A DNA stretch of 64,000 bases, taken from the sequence record PV805633.1; one strand, 5' to 3'. Within the stretch, counting starts at the first letter, position 1. The number at the start of each line of letters is the position of its first letter. Positions 58 through 56,952 of the stretch are shown here, one piece after another. The position numbers were made by a program, and so were the translations under genes. Under the pieces are notes generated by a model, which was given only the letters and a program-made list of their open reading frames with translations, was not told where the DNA came from and made no database searches. Origin of the DNA: a phage.

Positions 58-93
58 GACCTCCCTATTGAAGGGAGGTCTTTTTTTTTTTTT
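58..93 (+). terminator. Rho-independent terminator (8-bp stem GACCTCCC/GGGAGGTC, 7-nt loop, T13 tract)
   Basis: Perfect inverted repeat 58-65/73-80 followed by 13 consecutive T (81-93). Confidence 0.75.
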
Positions 94-17596: not shown

Positions 17597-17880
17597 TGAC
17601 TAAGCTCTCCGGTGGTCTTAATAACTACTATGTAGTTTTAATTAAAAATCCCCAACGGAAAGAGCAAGAGCCATATCAAGCAGAGTGTGAAGATATTATC
17701 CAAGCACTGGGCATGACCTTCGATGAAGGTTGTGCCTTTAAAGCTCTATGGCGAAATGCTGCTGCCCGTATGGGTAATGGTAAACCAGGTAACTCTTCGG
17801 TGTACGACTCAGAGAAGATTGTGCATTATGCCAATCGAATATTGAAAAAGGCTTACAATGAAAGTAACCAACAACCATGA
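17596..17880 (+). CDS. hypothetical protein (94 aa)
   Basis: ATGA overlap with upstream gene. Confidence 0.55.
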   Translation: MTKLSGGLNNYYVVLIKNPQRKEQEPYQAECEDIIQALGMTFDEGCAFKALWRNAAARMGNGKPGNSSVYDSEKIVHYANRILKKAYNESNQQP

Positions 17881-37203: not shown

Positions 37204-39158
37204 TTAAGGCATTTTCACATACCCAGGTATGCCTTGGGCTTGGCGTATATACCGTATAGCACGCTCCTGGTTTTCTTTCTCAGCCTCCCGATCTACGGAA
37301 GCCTGTGATCGAAAGTTACGAGGAGCCAGGTTTTGCGGATCAGCCTGTACCTGCCCCTGAGCATTTTTAAGCATTGCAGCAGCTCTAGCAACAGCCTCCT
37401 GTCGTGCAGGTAACAGTGCAGTAAGTGCAGTCTGACCTGTAGCAATCTTATTTGGGTGTTTGACAGTGCAGCTACGGCAGCATCATATGCAGTCTGTGCT
37501 GCCTGAATATTCTGCATAGCCTGAGCACGACCAAGGTTACGTACACTTGCTTCAAGGGGTTCACCACGTTTTAACCCCTCAATCATTTGGTCTACCTGAC
37601 GGTCATTAAGTCGCAAGCCATTACCGGCTTCTGGGGTTTGCCCTATAGTTAGATAATCAATAAGACGTCCTGTATTACTTTCCGGTACGTTAGTCATTGC
37701 ACGTTGAACAACAACACCTGCCATAGCAGGAGATACATTAGCACGCTGAGCAATATCATTGATACGAGCCACAACCCATTGTTTATCTGCCCCCTTAAAG
37801 TCACCCTCTAGTAATCTGTTAGCAACTTCCCCAACAGTAGAAGTGTCATTTAAGGCAGGTAAATAATCAGGAGCAATACTTCCAGCATTGTCCTCCATAG
37901 AACGAGTACCAATCATACCGGTAGCCAGAGTAGATACTGCCTGATTACCTTGGTTATTCTGAACCATAGCTAGTGGGTCAGCCCCTACTTCAGCTTGGGC
38001 AATAACAGGTTTCATCTCTTCCCAAGTCATATCCTTATAAGCACCTGGAGTAGAGTTAGGCAGAGCAGCCCAAGTATCTTTAAGGTTACCGTTCTTACGG
38101 GCCTCGAAGATAGCCCTACCAATCTTATCCTGGTTCTCAGGAGAAAGAGGCTGGCTTTGCCAATCTGGACCAAGAACTTTAGGAGCGAAGTCTAGCAGAG
38201 TAGCTTGGTTAATCTGGAATGCACCAACAGGAGAAGCACCCTGCTTCGACTTCATACTATCCTGATGCTTAATTACATCACCAATACTCATTTGAGTAAT
38301 AGGAGTAGATGTACCAGCAAACTGGTAAGTAACATCATAAGGAGAACCCTGACGAGTACCAGCAGTACCTGGGGCAGACGTAGCACCAACATTGTTACCG
38401 TAAACACCCGGATATGCTCGTGCAAGCATTTCCTGCAAACGTGCCTGTGCAACCGGAGACAGATGCTTACTATAAGATTCTGCCAGAATACGGGCATCGT
38501 CAGCATTCTCAGCACCACGAGTAATCAGTGCCATTACCCCCGTAGCAGCCTGACTATCAGCATCATTACGTTGAGCAACACCTAAATCAAAACGATTCTG
38601 TGCCTGATTAATAGCCTGACCACCCTGACCTTGAAGACGACTCAGCATGTCCAATTGCTGGTCAGCAGGGAGTGCAGACAATGCATCACGGGTCTGACTT
38701 AATGCAGCATTAATACGGTTCTGGTCACCCGACTGATAAGCCTCAGACAGCAAACGAATAGCAGGGGAAGCATTATCTAATGCAGTGTTAGTATCCCGTA
38801 AACGATCAAAGTTATAAGTATTGTAGTCATTGGTTCCCTGCTGACCTTGTTGAGTCAACAGTGTACCTGCTCGCTCATCAAGGTTTTGGAGGGTACGCTG
38901 GTTTATCAATGAAGGGTCAACCCCCTGAAACAGTGCACCAGATGCCAAAGCATTGCGGTACTCAGTAGGGTCTTGGTACTGCATAGCATTCATCATGACG
39001 GCATTGCCAGCCTCCTGCTTGGCAGCGTTCTGGAAATTACCCAGTGCATCACTTAAGCCGGAGGTGGCGTTACCAATCATGCTACCAAATGTGCGAATGC
39101 TGTCACCAACTCCAGAGAAGTTAGGTGCATCAACATTTCTCCACGTTATCTGAGCCAT
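37204..39158 (-). CDS. virion protein (N4 gp51-like), Gln/Ala-rich; reading frame interrupted by a 1-nt indel near 37451-37453
   Basis: 621-aa track ORF ends in R/L-rich out-of-frame sequence; alternative frame gives a coherent C-terminus ending ...GIPGYVKMP at 37204; AGGAAACC SD before ATG 39158. Confidence 0.65.
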
Positions 39159-49010: not shown

Positions 49011-49511
49011 CTATTCAAAAAGTTTACGGTCAGCCTGAATTTGCTTACCCAACTCAATTAGTTGGTTGTCACGGAGTCTAACAGTTGCCCGGAGTTCTTC
49101 AACCAAACGTCTGCCTTCTTCAAGACTGTTGTCGAGTCTGGCTGCATGGCTTGCAAGACTTCTGCACTCAAGGGTTCCGGCTTCGGCTTGACGTTTATAT
49201 ACCGATGCTCGTCTTTCAGACTGTTGCATCCGGCTGTCGTAATCACTGCTAACGCGAGCAAGCTCGCTTGCGTAATTACTCTCAGCCGTCTGCAACCGGG
49301 AAGTAAGTAACCCGACTTCATAACTATGGTTTCTTTGGAGAGCATTGTATTTGTCCTGTAGTTTTTGTGTTGCCTTCTGGTCTTCAACCTTTTGAGCATC
49401 CCATCTCTTTTGGACAGTAGACTGTCCATTGGAATTGCCCCAAAAGTAAATGGTGGCCCCGAGGACCACCACCAGAAGATAAGGCCAACCTTTAGAGATT
49501 AGCATCTTCAT
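49011..49511 (-). CDS. Rz-like i-spanin (N-terminal TM helix, coiled-coil periplasmic domain)
   Basis: [27 protein letters not shown] followed by a charged coiled-coil region; GGAGG 7 nt before ATG 49511; contains an embedded lipoprotein ORF. Confidence 0.65.
49058..49321 (-). CDS. Rz1-like o-spanin lipoprotein embedded within the Rz gene in another frame
   Basis: Signal peptide with lipobox-like ...[12 protein letters not shown], Pro-rich mature region; wholly inside Rz. Confidence 0.55.
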   Translation of the reverse strand: MKSGYLLPGCRRLRVITQASLLALAVITTAGCNSLKDEHRYINVKPKPEPLSAEVLQAMQPDSTTVLKKADVWLKNSGQLLDSVTTN

Positions 49512-50126
49512 TACATGCCTCCAGTGGTACATTACCGATTCGGTTAGCTACCCAACCATACGTAAAGTCTGGCATGTTCAATGAGGTGTAGTGGTTCAAT
49601 TGTTTAGCATCAAGCAACTTAATCATTACCTGACATGCTGCAACTTTGCCTCGTTTTTTCTGTAATGCTTTATATGCATTAACAGTACCTGCACCGACTT
49701 TACCATCAACTTGTATTTTAGGGTAGTCTTTGCCATCACGGGACATTTCATTAAGGGATTGCTGCAACCACTTAGCTGGTCTGGTTACACCGGTATTAAC
49801 ACCAGCATCAACCAGTTTGTGTGTTACAGCAGGAGATATATCAGCGAAGGCTACGAAGTTAGGCTTAATAACGTAGTCATCAATGTATATCTCAGCAGCC
49901 ATTTCTTTCGATAAACCCTTCATGGAACCATCCCAACCATACTCAGTAGCCAGAACTTCTTTGTGAGACTTAGCTACTGATTGGGTAATACCATGATTGG
50001 TTTCCCCACCTGGGTCACGAGGATTGTTTACGTACCCCCTTCCATATAGAACACTGCCCCCAGAATAGCAGCGATAACTCCTCCCACCGCACCCCCTTTT
50101 GCAGCAAGTTTCTGTTTAGCTTTCAT
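49492..50126 (-). CDS. GH108 N-acetylmuramidase endolysin with PG-binding domain and N-terminal Gly/Ala-rich TM (SAR-like) segment; frame broken at a C5 run (50035-50039)
   Basis: Frame 0 from ATG 50126 encodes MKAKQKLAAKGGAVGGVIAAILGAVFYMEGGT*; the -1 frame continues with the family motif GYVNNPRDPGGETNHGIT and the track ORF 49492-49923; combined length ~210 aa. Confidence 0.65.
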
Positions 50127-50938: not shown

Positions 50939-53479
50939 TCAGAACACAAAATCCAGTTGCATAAGCTGCTTCAACTGAATCTGCACGGTACTATCCTGGG
51001 TTACTTCCGGAACAGTTAAGCCAGAAACACCGATTGCAAAGTCCGCAATGAACCCGGTAGTAGGATTCCTTACTATATCCGCCCCAGTACCCCCAGAACC
51101 TGTACTTGCAAACTGAGTCTGCTTAGAACCAAAAGCATTACCTGTACCTGCAATAACTAGTTGCCATACACCCCTGCCGAGCGTACCTGGAATACTCAAG
51201 CTACCTGAACCAGCAGCACGGAATATCTTGGTATTCTCATAGAACATACACTCTTGCAACGTGCAGGTACTTCTCTGCCCGGTACTCAGTACCTGATTAC
51301 CCTGGAAGCTAAAGTTAGTCTGGTCATTCAGAACGAAGTCGCAGAGCATGGATGCTTGCAACTGCACGTTCATATCCAGAGTGTTGGCATGTGCAATCAG
51401 GGACTTAGGAATGCCTCCAATACGATAACCGGGGGAGCGGTAGTTCAGGTTCAGCGTGTTCAGTTGCTTAATACTGTTACCCACCAGCTTAACGGTTTGC
51501 CCACGATATACTTCAGTTGCGTTGGTGCCGGCGTTAATCATGACACCTTCTGCTTTATTGCTGGCGGTTAAGCACTTAAGCACTACAGTATTATGACTTA
51601 CGTCAATATCCTGGTACACCTGGTATGCGCTATCGCCACCTCCAGTTGATATAGCTACCCCATCAAAAGCTCTAAGCTCGCAATAGTTGTTGTGAATCTT
51701 AACAAAGGGGTTCGGATACGTCGCTGCCGTAGCCTCCCCACCCCCACCTACATCGATGCTGCGGGTGTACCTGCCGCCCGCAAGCGGACCGGTACTGGTA
51801 CTATCCGGAATATCCCTGGAGCGCACATAGTTGTTAGAGATTATGAGGTTATATGGTTCATAGTTTGGGTGCCAGCCTGAACCACATTTAGCGTAGATAC
51901 CGACTACGCCATGCTCCAGGCAGAAGTTATCAGTGATAATTAACTGACCCCCACCGTGAAAATCGATGCATTTTCTACGGCAGTTAAAAACGAAATTGCG
52001 GCTGGCTGTTATGTTGCGTATTCTCCTGTTTCTACCATGTCCGATGCCATAGCCAGGGTCAAAGGATGCATTCAAATCATCAGCACCGTTCGGGTGTCCG
52101 ATGTTGCTAATTACATTATCAAAGTAGCCCATTTTGTAGCCACACAGAACACCTATACCGTTTGAGTAACAGTTGGTTATTGTGTTCTTTGAAATAATAA
52201 TACCTTCTGGAACATCGCTTTCATTTGGGTAGTCCGCCATGTCCGGTGAGGCAATATTTCTTATGCCAATCCCAACACCTGCATAGTTAAAGCCAGATAT
52301 CTTACACCTTTCAACGGTTATATTTTTACAAGCTCTTTGAATCTTAACACCGCAACTCCAGCTGCCAATATACCCGCCAAGAAAAGTACCCCAACTGCTT
52401 TGGTAGCTTCCTGTTGGATTACCCGCACTGTCATAGGATGGGAATTGTCCGGACACCTCATTAAATGCCCCTGTGTTATAACTAGAGGTATCAACTGAGT
52501 TATTTGGTCCCAACACATTAACTCCACCGGCTGTATTGTAGCCAAATCGAGATTCTCCTTTCTCTGCATAACCAGTAGGCGCATCTATAGCAGGGAACTT
52601 GTTAGGGCCACGCACTGTTACAGACACAGTCACGTTCCGGCAATTTACAAGGGCAAGCCCATCCAGTCCGTGCGTATTCACAATTATAGTGCCGTTGGAG
52701 ATACGAATACCTTCCTTATTTACCAGTGCCAGACACGGACTGTAGTTACGTGTACCGTCGCTGAAGTCAGGCTCAGTAGGGTACGTAGAAGCCAGTGCAG
52801 GATTTTTCGAACTAAATACGTCTTCCCGCCTAAATCAATATCTCCAGTGGTGGCGTCGAAACATGCCTGCACTGCCAACGTATCGTCGGCAACGCCATCA
52901 CCAACCGCCCCCCCATCCACGTGGATCGCCATTATCACGCCAGCGAGCCATTTGTAGTTCGGGGTATTTTGTTGCACCTTCAGGGTCTGAAATCTGTCCT
53001 CGTAGTACCGCATCCCCAACACTCACCCAAGCACCCAGACCAACGCCACCAGAAGTTTCGGGGGTTGAATCAGCAGGAACCTCTTTAGGTAATGCTCCAT
53101 CCCAACGGTACTTACCATCAGTGAATACAACCAGTTCATTCTTAGTATTAACTGTTACACCAGTAGCAAATGAACCAGGTAGGGTTACATACTCTTCACG
53201 AGCAACAGCCAGTGCACCTAAGTCCACACTACCAGCAGAATGAACTAATACTCCAGCAGGGCTAAGACTTACAGCAGTAACCCCTGAACCAATATCAGCA
53301 GGTAAGGAATAAGCACGCTGTGACGCTTTGTCATAAATGACTTTGTAACCAGTAAGCAGAGCACCCACTGAGAAGTAAACAACTTCCGATTGTTTAACCC
53401 CAAAGTGACGGGCTACTGCTTGTTTGTTGGTTAATATTCCGGTTGATCCTCTTCCACCTTGTGAGAATAATTCGTTCAT
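50939..53479 (-). CDS. tailspike/tail fibre protein with right-handed beta-helix (pectate-lyase-like) domain; split into three ORFs by two single-base homopolymer frame breaks
   Basis: Pieces 52898-53479, 52720-53022 and 50939-52681; beta-helix entry motif GAVGDGVADDTLAVQA in the middle piece; AAGAGG SD before ATG 53479. Confidence 0.65.
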
Positions 53480-53528
53480 GTAAACCTCTTTGTTTTTCTA
53501 TAAGAAACTGCCCCGAAGGGCAGTCTGT

Positions 53529-56252
53529 TTAGCCAATGGACATACGGGAGTTAGCGAAATCATACGCATCTTGCTTTTTAGCAAACTGCGTTACGAAGTA
53601 GTCGCTGATACGAATTACACACCCGTTCGTTGACTGCAACTTAAGACGGCAAGTTCCTGCTGTTGCCGCCTGTCCTACACCGAAAGTATGCACCCATTCT
53701 CCTGGTGATGTGTATAGCCCCCCAAGAGGTACAGAATCCGCAATAGATGCCGTAACATCACCACTTACCAGTTTAAGACTGCACCCCCATACAATCTGAT
53801 AATACTGCGCTATGTTAGCCACTGGTTCACTCAAGAATAGGGTATATCCGGCAGGTATTACTAACTGAGCGCAAGTATCGCTTAACACACCGTCAGTAAC
53901 CGATGTGGCGTCTACGGTGCTCGTCCCGACAAACGCCCACGGCCCGCTCCCTGAAAAAGATTGTGAGTTTAGTACCGTACCAGTATGTGGGCGCTTTATT
54001 CTTCCGTTCAGCTTTGTACCACGAAGTGACAAATCCAGGTTACTGGCCACAGTGGATGAAACACTCGCCACAGATTCAACGTGAACCTTATCGCCGACGT
54101 AGCCACCTACGATAAGGTCGTGCGCAATAATCTGGCTTCCGTCGTCAACATTGATACTATACACACCAGTCGCGGCATCAAACCTACAGTTTTTTGCCAC
54201 CAGGGTAGAGCTTATCAGCTCAATATTGTTAAAATGGCACCCTTCCGCAACAGTTACCGGAACATTCTCTATTTTTAACTGTCTCGGGGTTTGCGGAACC
54301 CCGTCAACAGTTACTGTGTCTGCGGTGGCTACCAATTCGAACCATACGTTGCTGATAGTGGGCGGTACGACAGGAGCCAATCCATTGCCTTTAAAATAAA
54401 TACCGCCACCAGGGCATGCCTCAATGATACAGTCACGAATTGCTATGCCGTCAAGACCACCACCAGGAGCAGGACCTCCGACAGCGCCATTAAGGTAAAT
54501 GCTGTACGTATTAATTCCTGCAAAATGGCAATCCCTCCATGTATCAGCCCCGACATGCATGCCTGGGTCTGATACCGCCATATGGCCGTAATTACACGCC
54601 AGATAGCTACAGTGTTGGTACGTGTTGCCGATGTTTCCTTTCGGCTTGTAAAATCCAATATCAAGACCGTCAAAGGCAATATCCCTAAAGTTCCATCGGC
54701 CATCAAGATTAGATGATCCAAAAGCTATGCCTGTACCAACAGGGGTGGTTATGTCCCCTTCGATGAGGAAGTTCTGGGCGTGCCGATACTGCCACAGGCG
54801 GGAAGACTCGGTTAGAGTTAAACTTGTTTCCCCGGAGGATGGTTTAAATTTTACCTGATAACCAGTACCAATTATGTTGGCATTTCCCGATGTGTATTGC
54901 CCCGTGTAAGTACCAGGAGTGACCAGGAGATCATCTCGCCATCCAGTTGCATCAATAGCATCCTGTAAGTCTAAGTAATTACCAGAATGTTTAATATCAT
55001 CAAGATTGTCAGCAACAGTTCTCGTCCCATGACCAACGGATGCAGAACCAGTTGTCTGTGAATAGAAGTCCTTAACTTCAGCGATAATACTTTCCTTGGG
55101 AACATCCAATGGTAGTAGGTCAACTGTTACGTTACCGGGGGAATACGTTAACTGACCCTCACTAACAGATGCAATGTAAACGTTATTAGGTAAAGTAGGT
55201 AAGACATAGATGTGTTGGTTAACCACATCATAAATAACCTTCATTCCATTCAGATACTGAGTAGTATTAGTACTCAGTATAACTTCATTCTCCTGCACAT
55301 TAGCAGAACGAGCTACTTCCTGAATGGTACGGTCAGACATAACCAGGGTAGTAGACTCACCACCAATAGTTACAATCAAACGATCGTTGGTAGCCAGAGG
55401 CTCTGTTAAAAGGATACGCTGGTTAGCTGCATCGACTGTATAGGACTTATCAGCCAAACCTGCATAGTAGCGTTCGCCATTCTTGTAGATGGCTGGTACA
55501 GATTCAAACGTATACGGAACAGCAATTACTTGCTCACCACCCGAAGCATACCCACCGTTGTATAGCCAGTTAATCTGAACCCAGTCATTTACGTTAGGGT
55601 TATCTGGAACAGCAGGAGTACCGGTAAGGAACAGATGTACTTCATCACCTGGTTCCAATGGTTGAGCCAGAGTAACAGTTAGTGAAGCTGCATCATAGGT
55701 AAAACCATAACCAACTAAGTTGGTGTAGCCCCCAATTACAATCATCGGTACACCAACAGTGCCAGCAGGCACTGGGATAGTGGTTTCACCCCCAATAGCA
55801 GAACCATTGTTATATGAATATGGGATGTATGGTGGAGATGCTTTACCATCACCAGAATCTCCACCATCATCTGAATTAGAAGTGGCAACCAAAATCCAGG
55901 AACCAGTAGCAGACTGGTCATCCGGAATAACACCTGTACGGTCACCATCTACATACAGGTAATCTGTAACAACTCGTTTATTGGTATTATCAAAACCATA
56001 CAGACGTACATAGGATGCACTGGTAGGCATGGCCTTCAGTTCAGTTTCTGATTGAACACCTAGTACCATTCCATATTTATTTAAGAAATCATAAATGAGT
56101 TTAAGGTTACCCAAGTTACAGTAAACAGTGCGAACCACATGGTAAGCATTACCAAGTAGTGCATCTACCATTGGGTCGTTGGATCTATTCTGGCAGTAAG
56201 GATTAGACCAATCCTGATTTGCATCGAAGGGGGTATGTGCGTTCATCGCCAT
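53529..56252 (-). CDS. second receptor-binding/tail protein (907 aa) with beta-helix-like repeats
   Basis: Large ORF; Gly/Asn-rich repetitive segments such as ...IAIRDCIIEACPGGGIYFKGNG typical of beta-helix adhesins. Confidence 0.6.
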   Translation of the reverse strand: MAMNAHTPFDANQDWSNPYCQNRSNDPMVDALLGNAYHVVRTVYCNLGNLKLIYDFLNKYGMVLGVQSETELKAMPTSASYVRLYGFDNTNKRVVTDYLYVDGDRTGVIPDDQSATGSWILVATSNSDDGGDSGDGKASPPYIPYSYNNGSAIGGETTIPVPAGTVGVPMIVIGGYTNLVGYGFTYDAASLTVTLAQPLEPGDEVHLFLTGTPAVPDNPNVNDWVQINWLYNGGYASGGEQVIAVPYTFESVPAIYKNGERYYAGLADKSYTVDAANQRILLTEPLATNDRLIVTIGGESTTLVMSDRTIQEVARSANVQENEVILSTNTTQYLNGMKVIYDVVNQHIYVLPTLPNNVYIASVSEGQLTYSPGNVTVDLLPLDVPKESIIAEVKDFYSQTTGSASVGHGTRTVADNLDDIKHSGNYLDLQDAIDATGWRDDLLVTPGTYTGQYTSGNANIIGTGYQVKFKPSSGETSLTLTESSRLWQYRHAQNFLIEGDITTPVGTGIAFGSSNLDGRWNFRDIAFDGLDIGFYKPKGNIGNTYQHCSYLACNYGHMAVSDPGMHVGADTWRDCHFAGINTYSIYLNGAVGGPAPGGGLDGIAIRDCIIEACPGGGIYFKGNGLAPVVPPTISNVWFELVATADTVTVDGVPQTPRQLKIENVPVTVAEGCHFNNIELISSTLVAKNCRFDAATGVYSINVDDGSQIIAHDLIVGGYVGDKVHVESVASVSSTVASNLDLSLRGTKLNGRIKRPHTGTVLNSQSFSGSGPWAFVGTSTVDATSVTDGVLSDTCAQLVIPAGYTLFLSEPVANIAQYYQIVWGCSLKLVSGDVTASIADSVPLGGLYTSPGEWVHTFGVGQAATAGTCRLKLQSTNGCVIRISDYFVTQFAKKQDAYDFANSRMSIG

Positions 56253-56674
56253 CCTCGTTGTTCAAATTTAGTTTCGGTAATTGAAATACTTCCATTAGCC
56301 AGGTCGTAATCAACAACCTCACCACAGATGCTTTCATACGTTTGCAGATACTCTGCTGCTTTAGCGTTAGCTTCAGGAGTATTCAAACCAGTGTGGTAAC
56401 GATAACCCACCCAGTTATGAAGTGCCGTCATTAGCGTGTCAGCTAAATCAACTTCCTGTTCTTCATCACCCGTAAGTACTGGGTGCTTAGCTTGATACGT
56501 TACGTTAAGTGCCTCGAAGTGTCGAGGTCTCATACACTGAATAGTATCAGGCCGTGGAGTGAAAATAGCACGAGGGTCTGAGTCGTCGTTCAGTCTACGT
56601 CGATTCCCAGAGTTATCAAACACATTTAGGATTTTAATAACATCATCCTGGAAAGGCTTCATGAACCCATCCAT
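56243..56674 (-). CDS. virion/tail-associated protein (143 aa); start uncertain
   Basis: ORF track; overlaps upstream 97-aa ORF by 16 nt; no SD close to the ATG. Confidence 0.45.
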   Translation of the reverse strand: MDGFMKPFQDDVIKILNVFDNSGNRRRLNDDSDPRAIFTPRPDTIQCMRPRHFEALNVTYQAKHPVLTGDEEQEVDLADTLMTALHNWVGYRYHTGLNTPEANAKAAEYLQTYESICGEVVDYDLANGSISITETKFEQRGWR

Positions 56675-56952
56675 GATATAAGGATATTGAACCTCAAGAG
56701 TAGGCTGAGTAAATTTGAGTAAGCATATTTGGATTGAAGAGGATAATCAGTACGTCCTTCCTTCATCTCTACAATGCAGCTATTTGTCTTAAGGGGGAAA
56801 CGACTATGAAGTCGTACCAGTCCTTCATTAATAGCTGCCAGTATCTCCGGCTTACTATCTGGTTCAATATCCAGTCTGTCATCCGTGACTGCACCAGTAC
56901 CTTTTAAGGTACTTAGTGCCAAGCCACGGTATACTTCCGATAGTTTCTGCAT
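56659..56952 (-). CDS. hypothetical protein (97 aa); C-terminal ~20 residues look out-of-frame
   Basis: ORF track; may form one gene with the 143-aa ORF. Confidence 0.4.
   Translation of the reverse strand: MQKLSEVYRGLALSTLKGTGAVTDDRLDIEPDSKPEILAAINEGLVRLHSRFPLKTNSCIVEMKEGRTDYPLQSKYAYSNLLSLLLRFNILISWMGS

Follow-up and report, generated by a model that had tools for sequence, protein, structure and literature searches.

The tailspike pair of a G7C-like podophage: a known system in a new allele combination, with swapped C-terminal modules of predicted beta-helix fold

The closest described system is that of phage G7C, which belongs to the same genus and has the gene order gp63, gp63.1, gp66, gp67, terminase (Prokhorov et al. 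2017; PDB 4qnl for gp63.1). In the account of PMC8825819, which cites Prokhorov 2017, G7C gp66 and gp63.1 form a two-branched tailspike complex, in which the N-terminal part of gp66 contributes the virion anchor and the XD2/XD3 domains, and binding of gp63.1 to gp66 requires XD3, an experimental result given there for G7C only. Swapping of C-terminal modules in G7C-like phages has been documented (10.1101/542787), as in Alt63, where the esterase module of gp63.1 is replaced by an O-polysaccharide depolymerase (gp63.1A). Further parallels are the four spikes TSP1-TSP4 of CBA120 and other Kuttervirus members (4oj5, 6w4q, 7rej), and the tailspikes of P22-like (Lederbergvirus-type) prophages with their PF09008 head-binding domain.

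The DNA analysed here (a 64-kb stretch, referred to as the window) is that of a G7C-like Gamaleyavirus, with 95% nucleotide identity to phage G7C over 20 kb. Phage IME11, which the phage collection includes, does not come up as a near-identical match to the window. With the G7C proteins as tblastn queries, the order gp63, gp63.1, gp66, gp67, gp68 is collinear with G7C, and both spike genes are placed between gp63 and gp67/terminase, at the positions of gp66 and gp63.1. The two tandem genes that the earlier note had reported are real, with exact coordinates (50939-56252) and both on the minus strand. The locus contains the following features:

50939..53479, minus strand: secondary tailspike of the gp63.1 type, 846 aa after repair of two single-base indels (ORFs and homology)
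50939..52810, minus strand: its swapped C-terminal module, a predicted right-handed beta-helix (~aa 250-700) and C-terminal beta-sandwich (~aa 720-841) (AlphaFold2, Foldseek)
52803..52807, minus strand: frame break 2, an A5 run (T5 on the plus strand), one A short (A6 in four of four related DNAs)
52908..52914, minus strand: frame break 1, a G7 run (C7 on the plus strand), one G in excess (G6 in L003 and L007)
52970..53479, minus strand: conserved N-terminal docking part of the tailspike, ~aa 1-170 (homology to G7C gp63.1)
53505..53526, minus strand: GC-rich hairpin followed by a T-tract, terminator-like, inside the 49-nt spacer between the spike genes
53529..55094, minus strand: swapped C-terminal receptor-binding module of the primary tailspike, ~aa 387-907, with predicted helical neck, right-handed beta-helix and C-terminal beta-sandwich (homology and AlphaFold2)
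53529..56252, minus strand: gp66-like primary tailspike ('tail fibre'), 907 aa, uninterrupted ORF (ORF list and homology)
55095..56252, minus strand: its conserved N-terminal part, ~aa 1-386, with virion anchor and T4 gp10-like XD2/XD3 branching domains (structure-sequence alignments)

This is the usual host-recognition tailspike pair of a G7C-like (N4-like) coliphage, i.e. a known system in a new allele combination. We put a probability of roughly 85% on the full reading, in which the locus encodes a branched two-spike complex with swapped beta-helix modules and the gp63.1-like gene has frame breaks that are artefactual. A pair of receptor-binding proteins for an N4-like phage had indeed been proposed beforehand, which is borne out by the position and N-terminal homology of both proteins to G7C gp66 and gp63.1, and by C-terminal parts that both model as tailspike-type beta-helices.

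The 907-aa protein is, judging by its sequence, of the gp66 type, with the anchor and XD2/XD3 domains. Over residues 3-380 it shares 68% identity with G7C gp66, and phmmer matches it to PDB 9d80_D (E = 2.9e-140), as well as to phrog_12242 ('tail protein'). Its N-terminal part aligns to residues 1-384 of 9d80_D, to CBA120 TSP2 (6w4q_A 14-246) and to TSP4-N (7rej_A 197-335), the latter two resembling the gp66-like XD domains. Beyond this part the relationship changes: DNA matches of 87-90% to other Gamaleyaviruses extend only from ~55107 upward, while the last ~510 residues share 85-89% identity with the 635-aa 'head-binding domain' tailspikes of P22-like E. coli prophages. The C-terminal module is thus shared with the P22-like prophage tailspikes, whereas the N-terminal attachment domain is of the gp66 type here and of the P22 head-binding type there. 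Two metagenome proteins (P0052 and P0055, 904-905 aa) are 76-77% identical over the module, and an exact-sequence look-up of the protein in public assemblies returned no record. The same gp66-like allele type, over the whole protein, is found in Bp4, PD38 and Uz-1 (Gamaleyavirus Bp4; 905 aa in PD38 versus 907 aa here), but their tail-fibre genes have just ~76% nucleotide identity to the gp66-like gene along most of its length. The spike partnered with it belongs to another allele in these phages, in PD38 a 704-aa 'tail spike protein' with a gene that matches the tailspike here in the N-terminal part only.

The repaired 846-aa protein likewise carries a docking domain of the gp63.1/TSP1 type according to its Pfam and BLAST-type matches (PF18668 Tail_spike_N, E = 3.5e-25, 88 bits versus a cutoff of 25). 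Residues 1-204 match residues 1-206 of CBA120 TSP1 (4oj5_A, E = 2.8e-82), residues 1-165 match G7C gp63.1 (4qnl_A, E = 1.1e-71), and the identity to residues 1-174 of gp63.1 is 68%, so that the anchor, branching and docking parts are all at 68% identity to G7C. [quoted passage not shown] The entries 9D80-9D84 are taken as G7C-type gp66 and gp63.1 complexes (9d80/9d81 probably being that of G7C) on the strength of sequence and molecule names, a literature search by these codes having returned no relevant paper. In this gene, too, the DNA match to other Gamaleyaviruses (~88-90%) extends only from ~53016 upward, and the C-terminus is absent from all Gamaleyaviruses of the phage collection. The 39 homologues of the C-terminal module (34-93% identity) include, at 60-93% identity, spikes from phages of other morphotypes that belong to Enterobacter, Salmonella, Shigella and E. 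coli, among them the Ackermannviridae phages P46FS4 and ChubbyThor. Neither C-terminal module is related to its G7C counterpart, and the SGNH esterase of gp63.1 is replaced here by a predicted beta-helix. The likeness to Alt63 gp63.1A is one of principle (a gp63.1 N-terminus with a depolymerase-type C-terminus) and is not evidenced as the same module, while CBA120 differs in being a myovirus with four spikes on its baseplate, compared to two on a podovirus here.

Both proteins had been described as carrying beta-helix-like repeats. Repeats in the sequence itself are not detectable, and in the Pfam search for Beta_helix the 907-aa protein stays below threshold (20.4 versus 25.9 bits) and the tailspike has no match, yet the fold is supported by AlphaFold2 models, Foldseek and precomputed PF13229 matches on many homologues. 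The models (which are of monomers) consist of long runs of short strands, with a pLDDT of 74 for the gp66-like module and a pLDDT of 85 and pTM of 0.88 for the gp63.1-like module. Foldseek gives a probability of 1.00 to many solved tailspikes, at modest TM-scores of 0.3-0.4, and all matches at E <= 0.001 are tailspikes, tail fibres or beta-helix carbohydrate enzymes. The best matches of the gp66-like module are K2-2 TSP, CBA120 TSP2 and Sf6 TSP (E around 1e-7); those of the tailspike module in the PDB include APK14 gp49, Det7-type gp208, LKA1 gp49, HK620 and Sf6, and its BFVD matches are tailspikes. Structure prediction, which the earlier note had proposed as a check, returned right-handed beta-helix folds of the tailspike type for both C-terminal parts.

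As written in the record, the tailspike gene is split over three ORFs: 52898..53479 (193 aa), the useful part of 52720..53022, and 50939..52681 (580 aa), the frame of the last remaining open upstream to ~52810. Taking one G out of the G7 run and putting one A into the A5 run gives the single 846-aa protein, in which the repaired readings at break 1, RGWGAVGDGVADDT, and break 2, YLVRKNPALASTYP, agree with the homologues, and which aligns without gaps to intact homologues over both junctions. The most conserved motif, GAVGDGxxDDT...DLGGKTYLV, is the one encoded between the two breaks. As references, the Enterobacter phage records L002-L004, being full of frame breaks themselves, served at the two homopolymer sites only, alongside an intact metagenome locus (L007). 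The frame breaks, which had been singled out as worth checking, are real in the record, but they are most likely single-base homopolymer length errors rather than biology, as far as can be judged from the sequence, because gp51, the endolysin gp61 and gp67 are each disrupted by an isolated 1-nt deletion as well and otherwise share 93-99% identity with G7C (except for a more divergent gp51 tail). Two compensating indels just 107 nt apart would be an odd coincidence for random errors, and all five coding-region breaks fall in the late-gene region (37-57 kb), two observations that sit uneasily with an artefact.

If the breaks were real instead, the gp63.1-like gene could be a recently inactivated pseudogene, leaving the phage to rely on the gp66-like spike, in a variant of which the 193-aa N-terminal fragment might still be made and cap the docking site. 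It is true that the ORF as written ends five codons past the G7 run and that the secondary spike is a swappable accessory in G7C-like phages (10.1101/542787). However, the remainder of the gene is without further stops or decay and 93% identical to an intact homologue, the second indel returns exactly to the original frame (which selection would not favour in a dead gene), and the endolysin, gp67 and gp51 would then be dead too, which is incompatible with a viable phage, so that inactivation seems unlikely. It is more doubtful still, to the point of being far-fetched, that the homopolymer tracts form a switch, in which ribosomal or transcriptional slippage or a hypermutable tract length would turn the secondary spike on and off and create host-range subpopulations. 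Campylobacter phages are known to have hypermutable poly-G tracts, and both breaks do lie in slippery runs (GGG-G permits a +1 shift, A-AAA a -1 shift), but in relatives, which have G6 and A6, a single frame suffices for the same protein, two low-efficiency shifts in succession would yield very little product, and the three other broken genes lack such runs, whereas a general error process covers all five breaks. Were the switch true, the host range of a virulent N4-like coliphage would be phase-variable, in analogy to the Campylobacter phage tracts. Both tracts lie where the docking domain of the secondary spike joins its beta-helix.

With regard to enzymatic activity, the proposal of polysaccharide-degrading or deacetylating spikes holds in its first half at most. 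An O-antigen deacetylase of the G7C gp63.1 type would fit the gene position and the N-terminal docking domain, which are those of the G7C esterase spike, but BLASTP similarity to gp63.1 stops at ~residue 170, the Pfam search finds no SGNH/GDSL domain, and the C-terminal part models as a beta-helix with glycosidase or lyase spikes as Foldseek matches, which makes a deacetylase highly improbable. Since the SGNH domain is absent, a glycan depolymerase appears likelier. Conserved D, E and H columns are present in the homologue alignment; neither a close structural relative nor a catalytic site was identified among the Foldseek matches to solved spikes, and it is because of the former that a transferable active site is lacking.

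Returning to the favoured reading of two intact spikes, the 907-aa gp66-like protein would act as the primary spike, its conserved N-terminal third anchoring to the tail and bearing the T4 gp10-like branching domains, and its C-terminal two-thirds forming a beta-helix module for receptor binding and depolymerisation, of the P22-like E. coli prophage tailspike type. The 846-aa gp63.1-like protein would be the secondary spike, whose N-terminal ~170 residues dock on the gp66-like branching domain, a contact suggested by the conservation of both interacting parts. Its last ~620 residues would form a second beta-helix module, unrelated to the first and shared with tailspikes of Enterobacter T7-like phages, Salmonella/Shigella-infecting Ackermannviridae and E. 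coli T7-like phages. Both modules would have been gained by C-terminal swapping. Because of the two different modules on branched spikes, the virion may have two different surface-polysaccharide specificities (probably O-antigen). The analysis itself shows the homology, the domain limits, the predicted folds and what kind of indels these are; from there we infer trimerisation, contact of the gp66-like with the gp63.1-like spike, enzymatic activity and the target glycans.

The locus does not change what is known of how such phages work, and its value lies in annotation and host-range prediction, two O-antigen or capsule specificities being hinted at. The tailspike is best entered as one 846-aa gene, and the record is suspect at five single-base sites. 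An E. coli-prophage-type spike is combined here with a module otherwise mostly found in Enterobacter, Salmonella and Shigella phages, which adds a further example of receptor-binding modules exchanged across morphotypes.

tRNA and Rfam scans of the window gave no matches, and a DNA repeat search over the locus found short chance matches only. The promoter/terminator scan did not exceed the shuffle expectation and did not pick up the hairpin between the spike genes; folded on its own, this spacer gives -15.2 kcal/mol. In G7C the corresponding site holds an equivalent hairpin whose stem differs in sequence, and a conserved stem-loop of G7C-like phages has been described in a preprint (10.1101/542787).

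By its sequence, the window is a Gamaleyavirus: between 30 and 50 kb it is 95.3% identical to phage G7C, and tblastn with 43 G7C proteins shows a collinear gene order. The position that is occupied in G7C by gp63.1 and gp66, its two spikes, holds two spike genes here as well, and the genes of this region all lie on the minus strand. The locus reads as follows:

53529..56252, minus strand: 907-aa ORF (gp66-like primary tailspike), uninterrupted
50939..53479, minus strand: gp63.1-like tailspike gene, in three ORFs and two reading frames
52898..53479, minus strand: tailspike ORF piece, 193 aa
part of 52720..53022, minus strand: tailspike ORF piece (ORF call)
50939..52681, minus strand: tailspike ORF piece, 580 aa
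52908-52914, minus strand: frame break 1, a G7 run (C7 on the plus strand)
52803-52807, minus strand: frame break 2, an A5 run (T5 on the plus strand), where the frame returns, 107 nt after the first
53505-53526: GC-rich hairpin with T-tract in the 49-nt spacer between the spike genes, -15.2 kcal/mol

In silico removal of one G and insertion of one A yields a single tailspike protein of 846 aa, and it follows from these shifts and this repair that the coordinates, lengths and frame breaks reported in the earlier note were all correct. A hairpin lies at the same intergenic place in G7C, and a conserved stem-loop between the two spike genes is discussed in a preprint (10.1101/542787).

The N-terminal parts of both spikes are conserved. 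Residues 3-380 of the 907-aa protein are 68% identical to G7C gp66, and the protein matches the solved chain 9d80_D ('Tail fiber protein', 1086 aa; E=2.9e-140) as well as 9d83_D, while its gp10-like domains match CBA120 TSP2 (6w4q) and TSP4-N (7rej). Likewise, residues 1-170 of the repaired tailspike are 68% identical to G7C gp63.1; it contains PF18668 and matches 4qnl (G7C gp63.1), the better match being 4oj5 (CBA120 TSP1), over tailspike residues 1-204. The tailspike N-terminal domain (53024-53422) also shows weak similarity (32-36% identity) to a domain inside gp66 and to its equivalent, aa 293-401, in the 907-aa protein; a shared TSP 'head' domain, present in both spikes through duplication, would fit this. 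In G7C, according to a passage of PMC8825819 citing Prokhorov et al. 2017, the gp66 N-terminus serves tail attachment and the XD3 domain of gp66 is bound by gp63.1, giving a two-branched complex.

Past these N-terminal parts, neither spike resembles its G7C counterpart in protein comparisons. For the tailspike C-terminus (623 aa, window 50942-52810), a 29-sequence alignment gave a model, with a pLDDT of 85 and a pTM of 0.88, in which a long stack of short strands is accompanied by a C-terminal beta domain. Its best Foldseek matches in the PDB are tailspike depolymerases (probability 1.00, at a TM of only 0.3-0.4), including APK14 gp49, Det7-type gp208, Fri1 and LKA1 gp49, HK620, Sf6 and the K1 lyase, and its BFVD matches are tailspikes too. 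The gp66-like C-terminus (aa 368-907; pLDDT 74, weak at model residues 383-426) matches K2-2 TSP, CBA120 TSP2, Sf6 TSP and Klebsiella depolymerases (Foldseek, E ~1e-7), and a sub-threshold Pfam Beta_helix match (residues 572-723 of the 907-aa protein) falls inside the modelled helix. On the strength of these models and matches, both modules are predicted to be tailspike-type right-handed beta-helices, as had been guessed from the sequence. The observation of the earlier note is confirmed, and its interpretation essentially right. The suggested deacetylating activity (i.e. of the G7C type) is unsupported, since an SGNH esterase domain was found in neither spike.

The architecture of the locus is already known, while the combination of known-type modules is new. 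Among G7C-like phages, exchange of the C-terminal half of either spike, gp63.1 or gp66, has been described, probably with prophages supplying the new modules (10.1101/542787), and the replacement of an esterase by a depolymerase is a known case in phage Alt63 (PMC10743462). At 85-89% identity, the gp66 C-terminal module matches 635-aa P22-like tailspikes ('head-binding domain') from E. coli prophages, and at 76-77% it matches 772-aa proteins of Salmonella and metagenome proteins of 904-905 aa; tail-fibre genes of Bp4, PD38 and Uz-1 share ~76% nucleotide identity with the 907-aa gene. The tailspike module occurs in no other Gamaleyavirus among the phage collection searched. A protein encoded by a 44.7-kb metagenome contig (siphovirus-like, because of its tape-measure gene) shares 93% identity with the module. 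Spikes of T7-like phages of Enterobacter cloacae and of E. coli (Peacock, LS2) and of the Ackermannviridae P46FS4, ChubbyThor and Gloob share 60-75% with it, and phage HF4s of E. coli 4s shares 46%; Enterobacter hormaechei prophage proteins are related to it as well.

The frame breaks, which the earlier note had considered doubly worth checking, are present in the sequence, but are most probably errors in the record. A search with the C-terminal 674 residues of the repaired tailspike gave 39 homologues, many of them full-length (98-100% query coverage, 60-93% identity), to which both junctions align without gaps, and the most conserved family motif (...RGWGAVGDGVADDTLAVQACFDATTGDIDLGGKTYLVRKNPALASTYPTEPDF...) is encoded by the out-of-frame stretch. 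The G7 of the window is G6 both in an intact metagenome relative (L007) and in an Enterobacter phage, L003, and its A5 is A6 in all four relatives examined; the tailspike gene shows no further stops and no sign of decay. A defect survey, by tblastn of the 43 G7C proteins against the window and nucleotide alignments, revealed three further isolated 1-nt deletions:

37213-39158, minus strand: gp51-like virion protein, 1-nt deletion vs G7C at ~37453
49495-50126, minus strand: gp61 endolysin (N-acetylmuramidase), GGAGGG to GGGGG at ~50038
56243-56952, minus strand: gp67-like tail/adaptor gene, CC to C vs G7C at ~56717

Over these genes the identity to G7C is 93-99%, except in the C-terminal third of gp51 (~75%), which is much more divergent than neighbouring genes; the gp51-like frame differs over its last ~80 residues, after the deletion. 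The endolysin gene is frame-broken as written, although the stretch around the missing base is otherwise 100% identical to G7C. The gp67-like gene, whose G7C counterpart encodes 236 aa, appears as two ORFs, 56659-56952 and 56243-56674, and it is because of this break that two adjacent ORFs each match phrog_2125. Defects in the endolysin, in two virion proteins and in a spike would together leave a phage non-viable, and therefore single-base record errors are the simplest explanation. It is mildly odd that the two spike indels are so closely paired and that all five breaks cluster in 37-57 kb. The one non-trivial alternative left, in which the homopolymer tracts would truly switch the second spike on and off, is very improbable.

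Three Enterobacter T7-like phage records (L002-L004: PQ039555, PQ039553, OP272492) share the tailspike module, there frame-broken into many small annotated 'hypothetical proteins'. These public records look error-rich, and a large annotated repeat in PQ039553 (78.7 kb) suggests a misassembled concatemer.

Elsewhere, window ~2157-2168, 17850-17858 and 23643-23850 lack counterparts of the G7C homing endonucleases gp24.1, gp41.1 and gp47.1, and the gp41 match is limited to the first 85 of 156 residues, adjoining the missing gp41.1. A T13 run (window 81-93) immediately follows a GC-rich hairpin (GACCTCCC...GGGAGGTC), and the two together resemble a strong intrinsic terminator, located in the early region.
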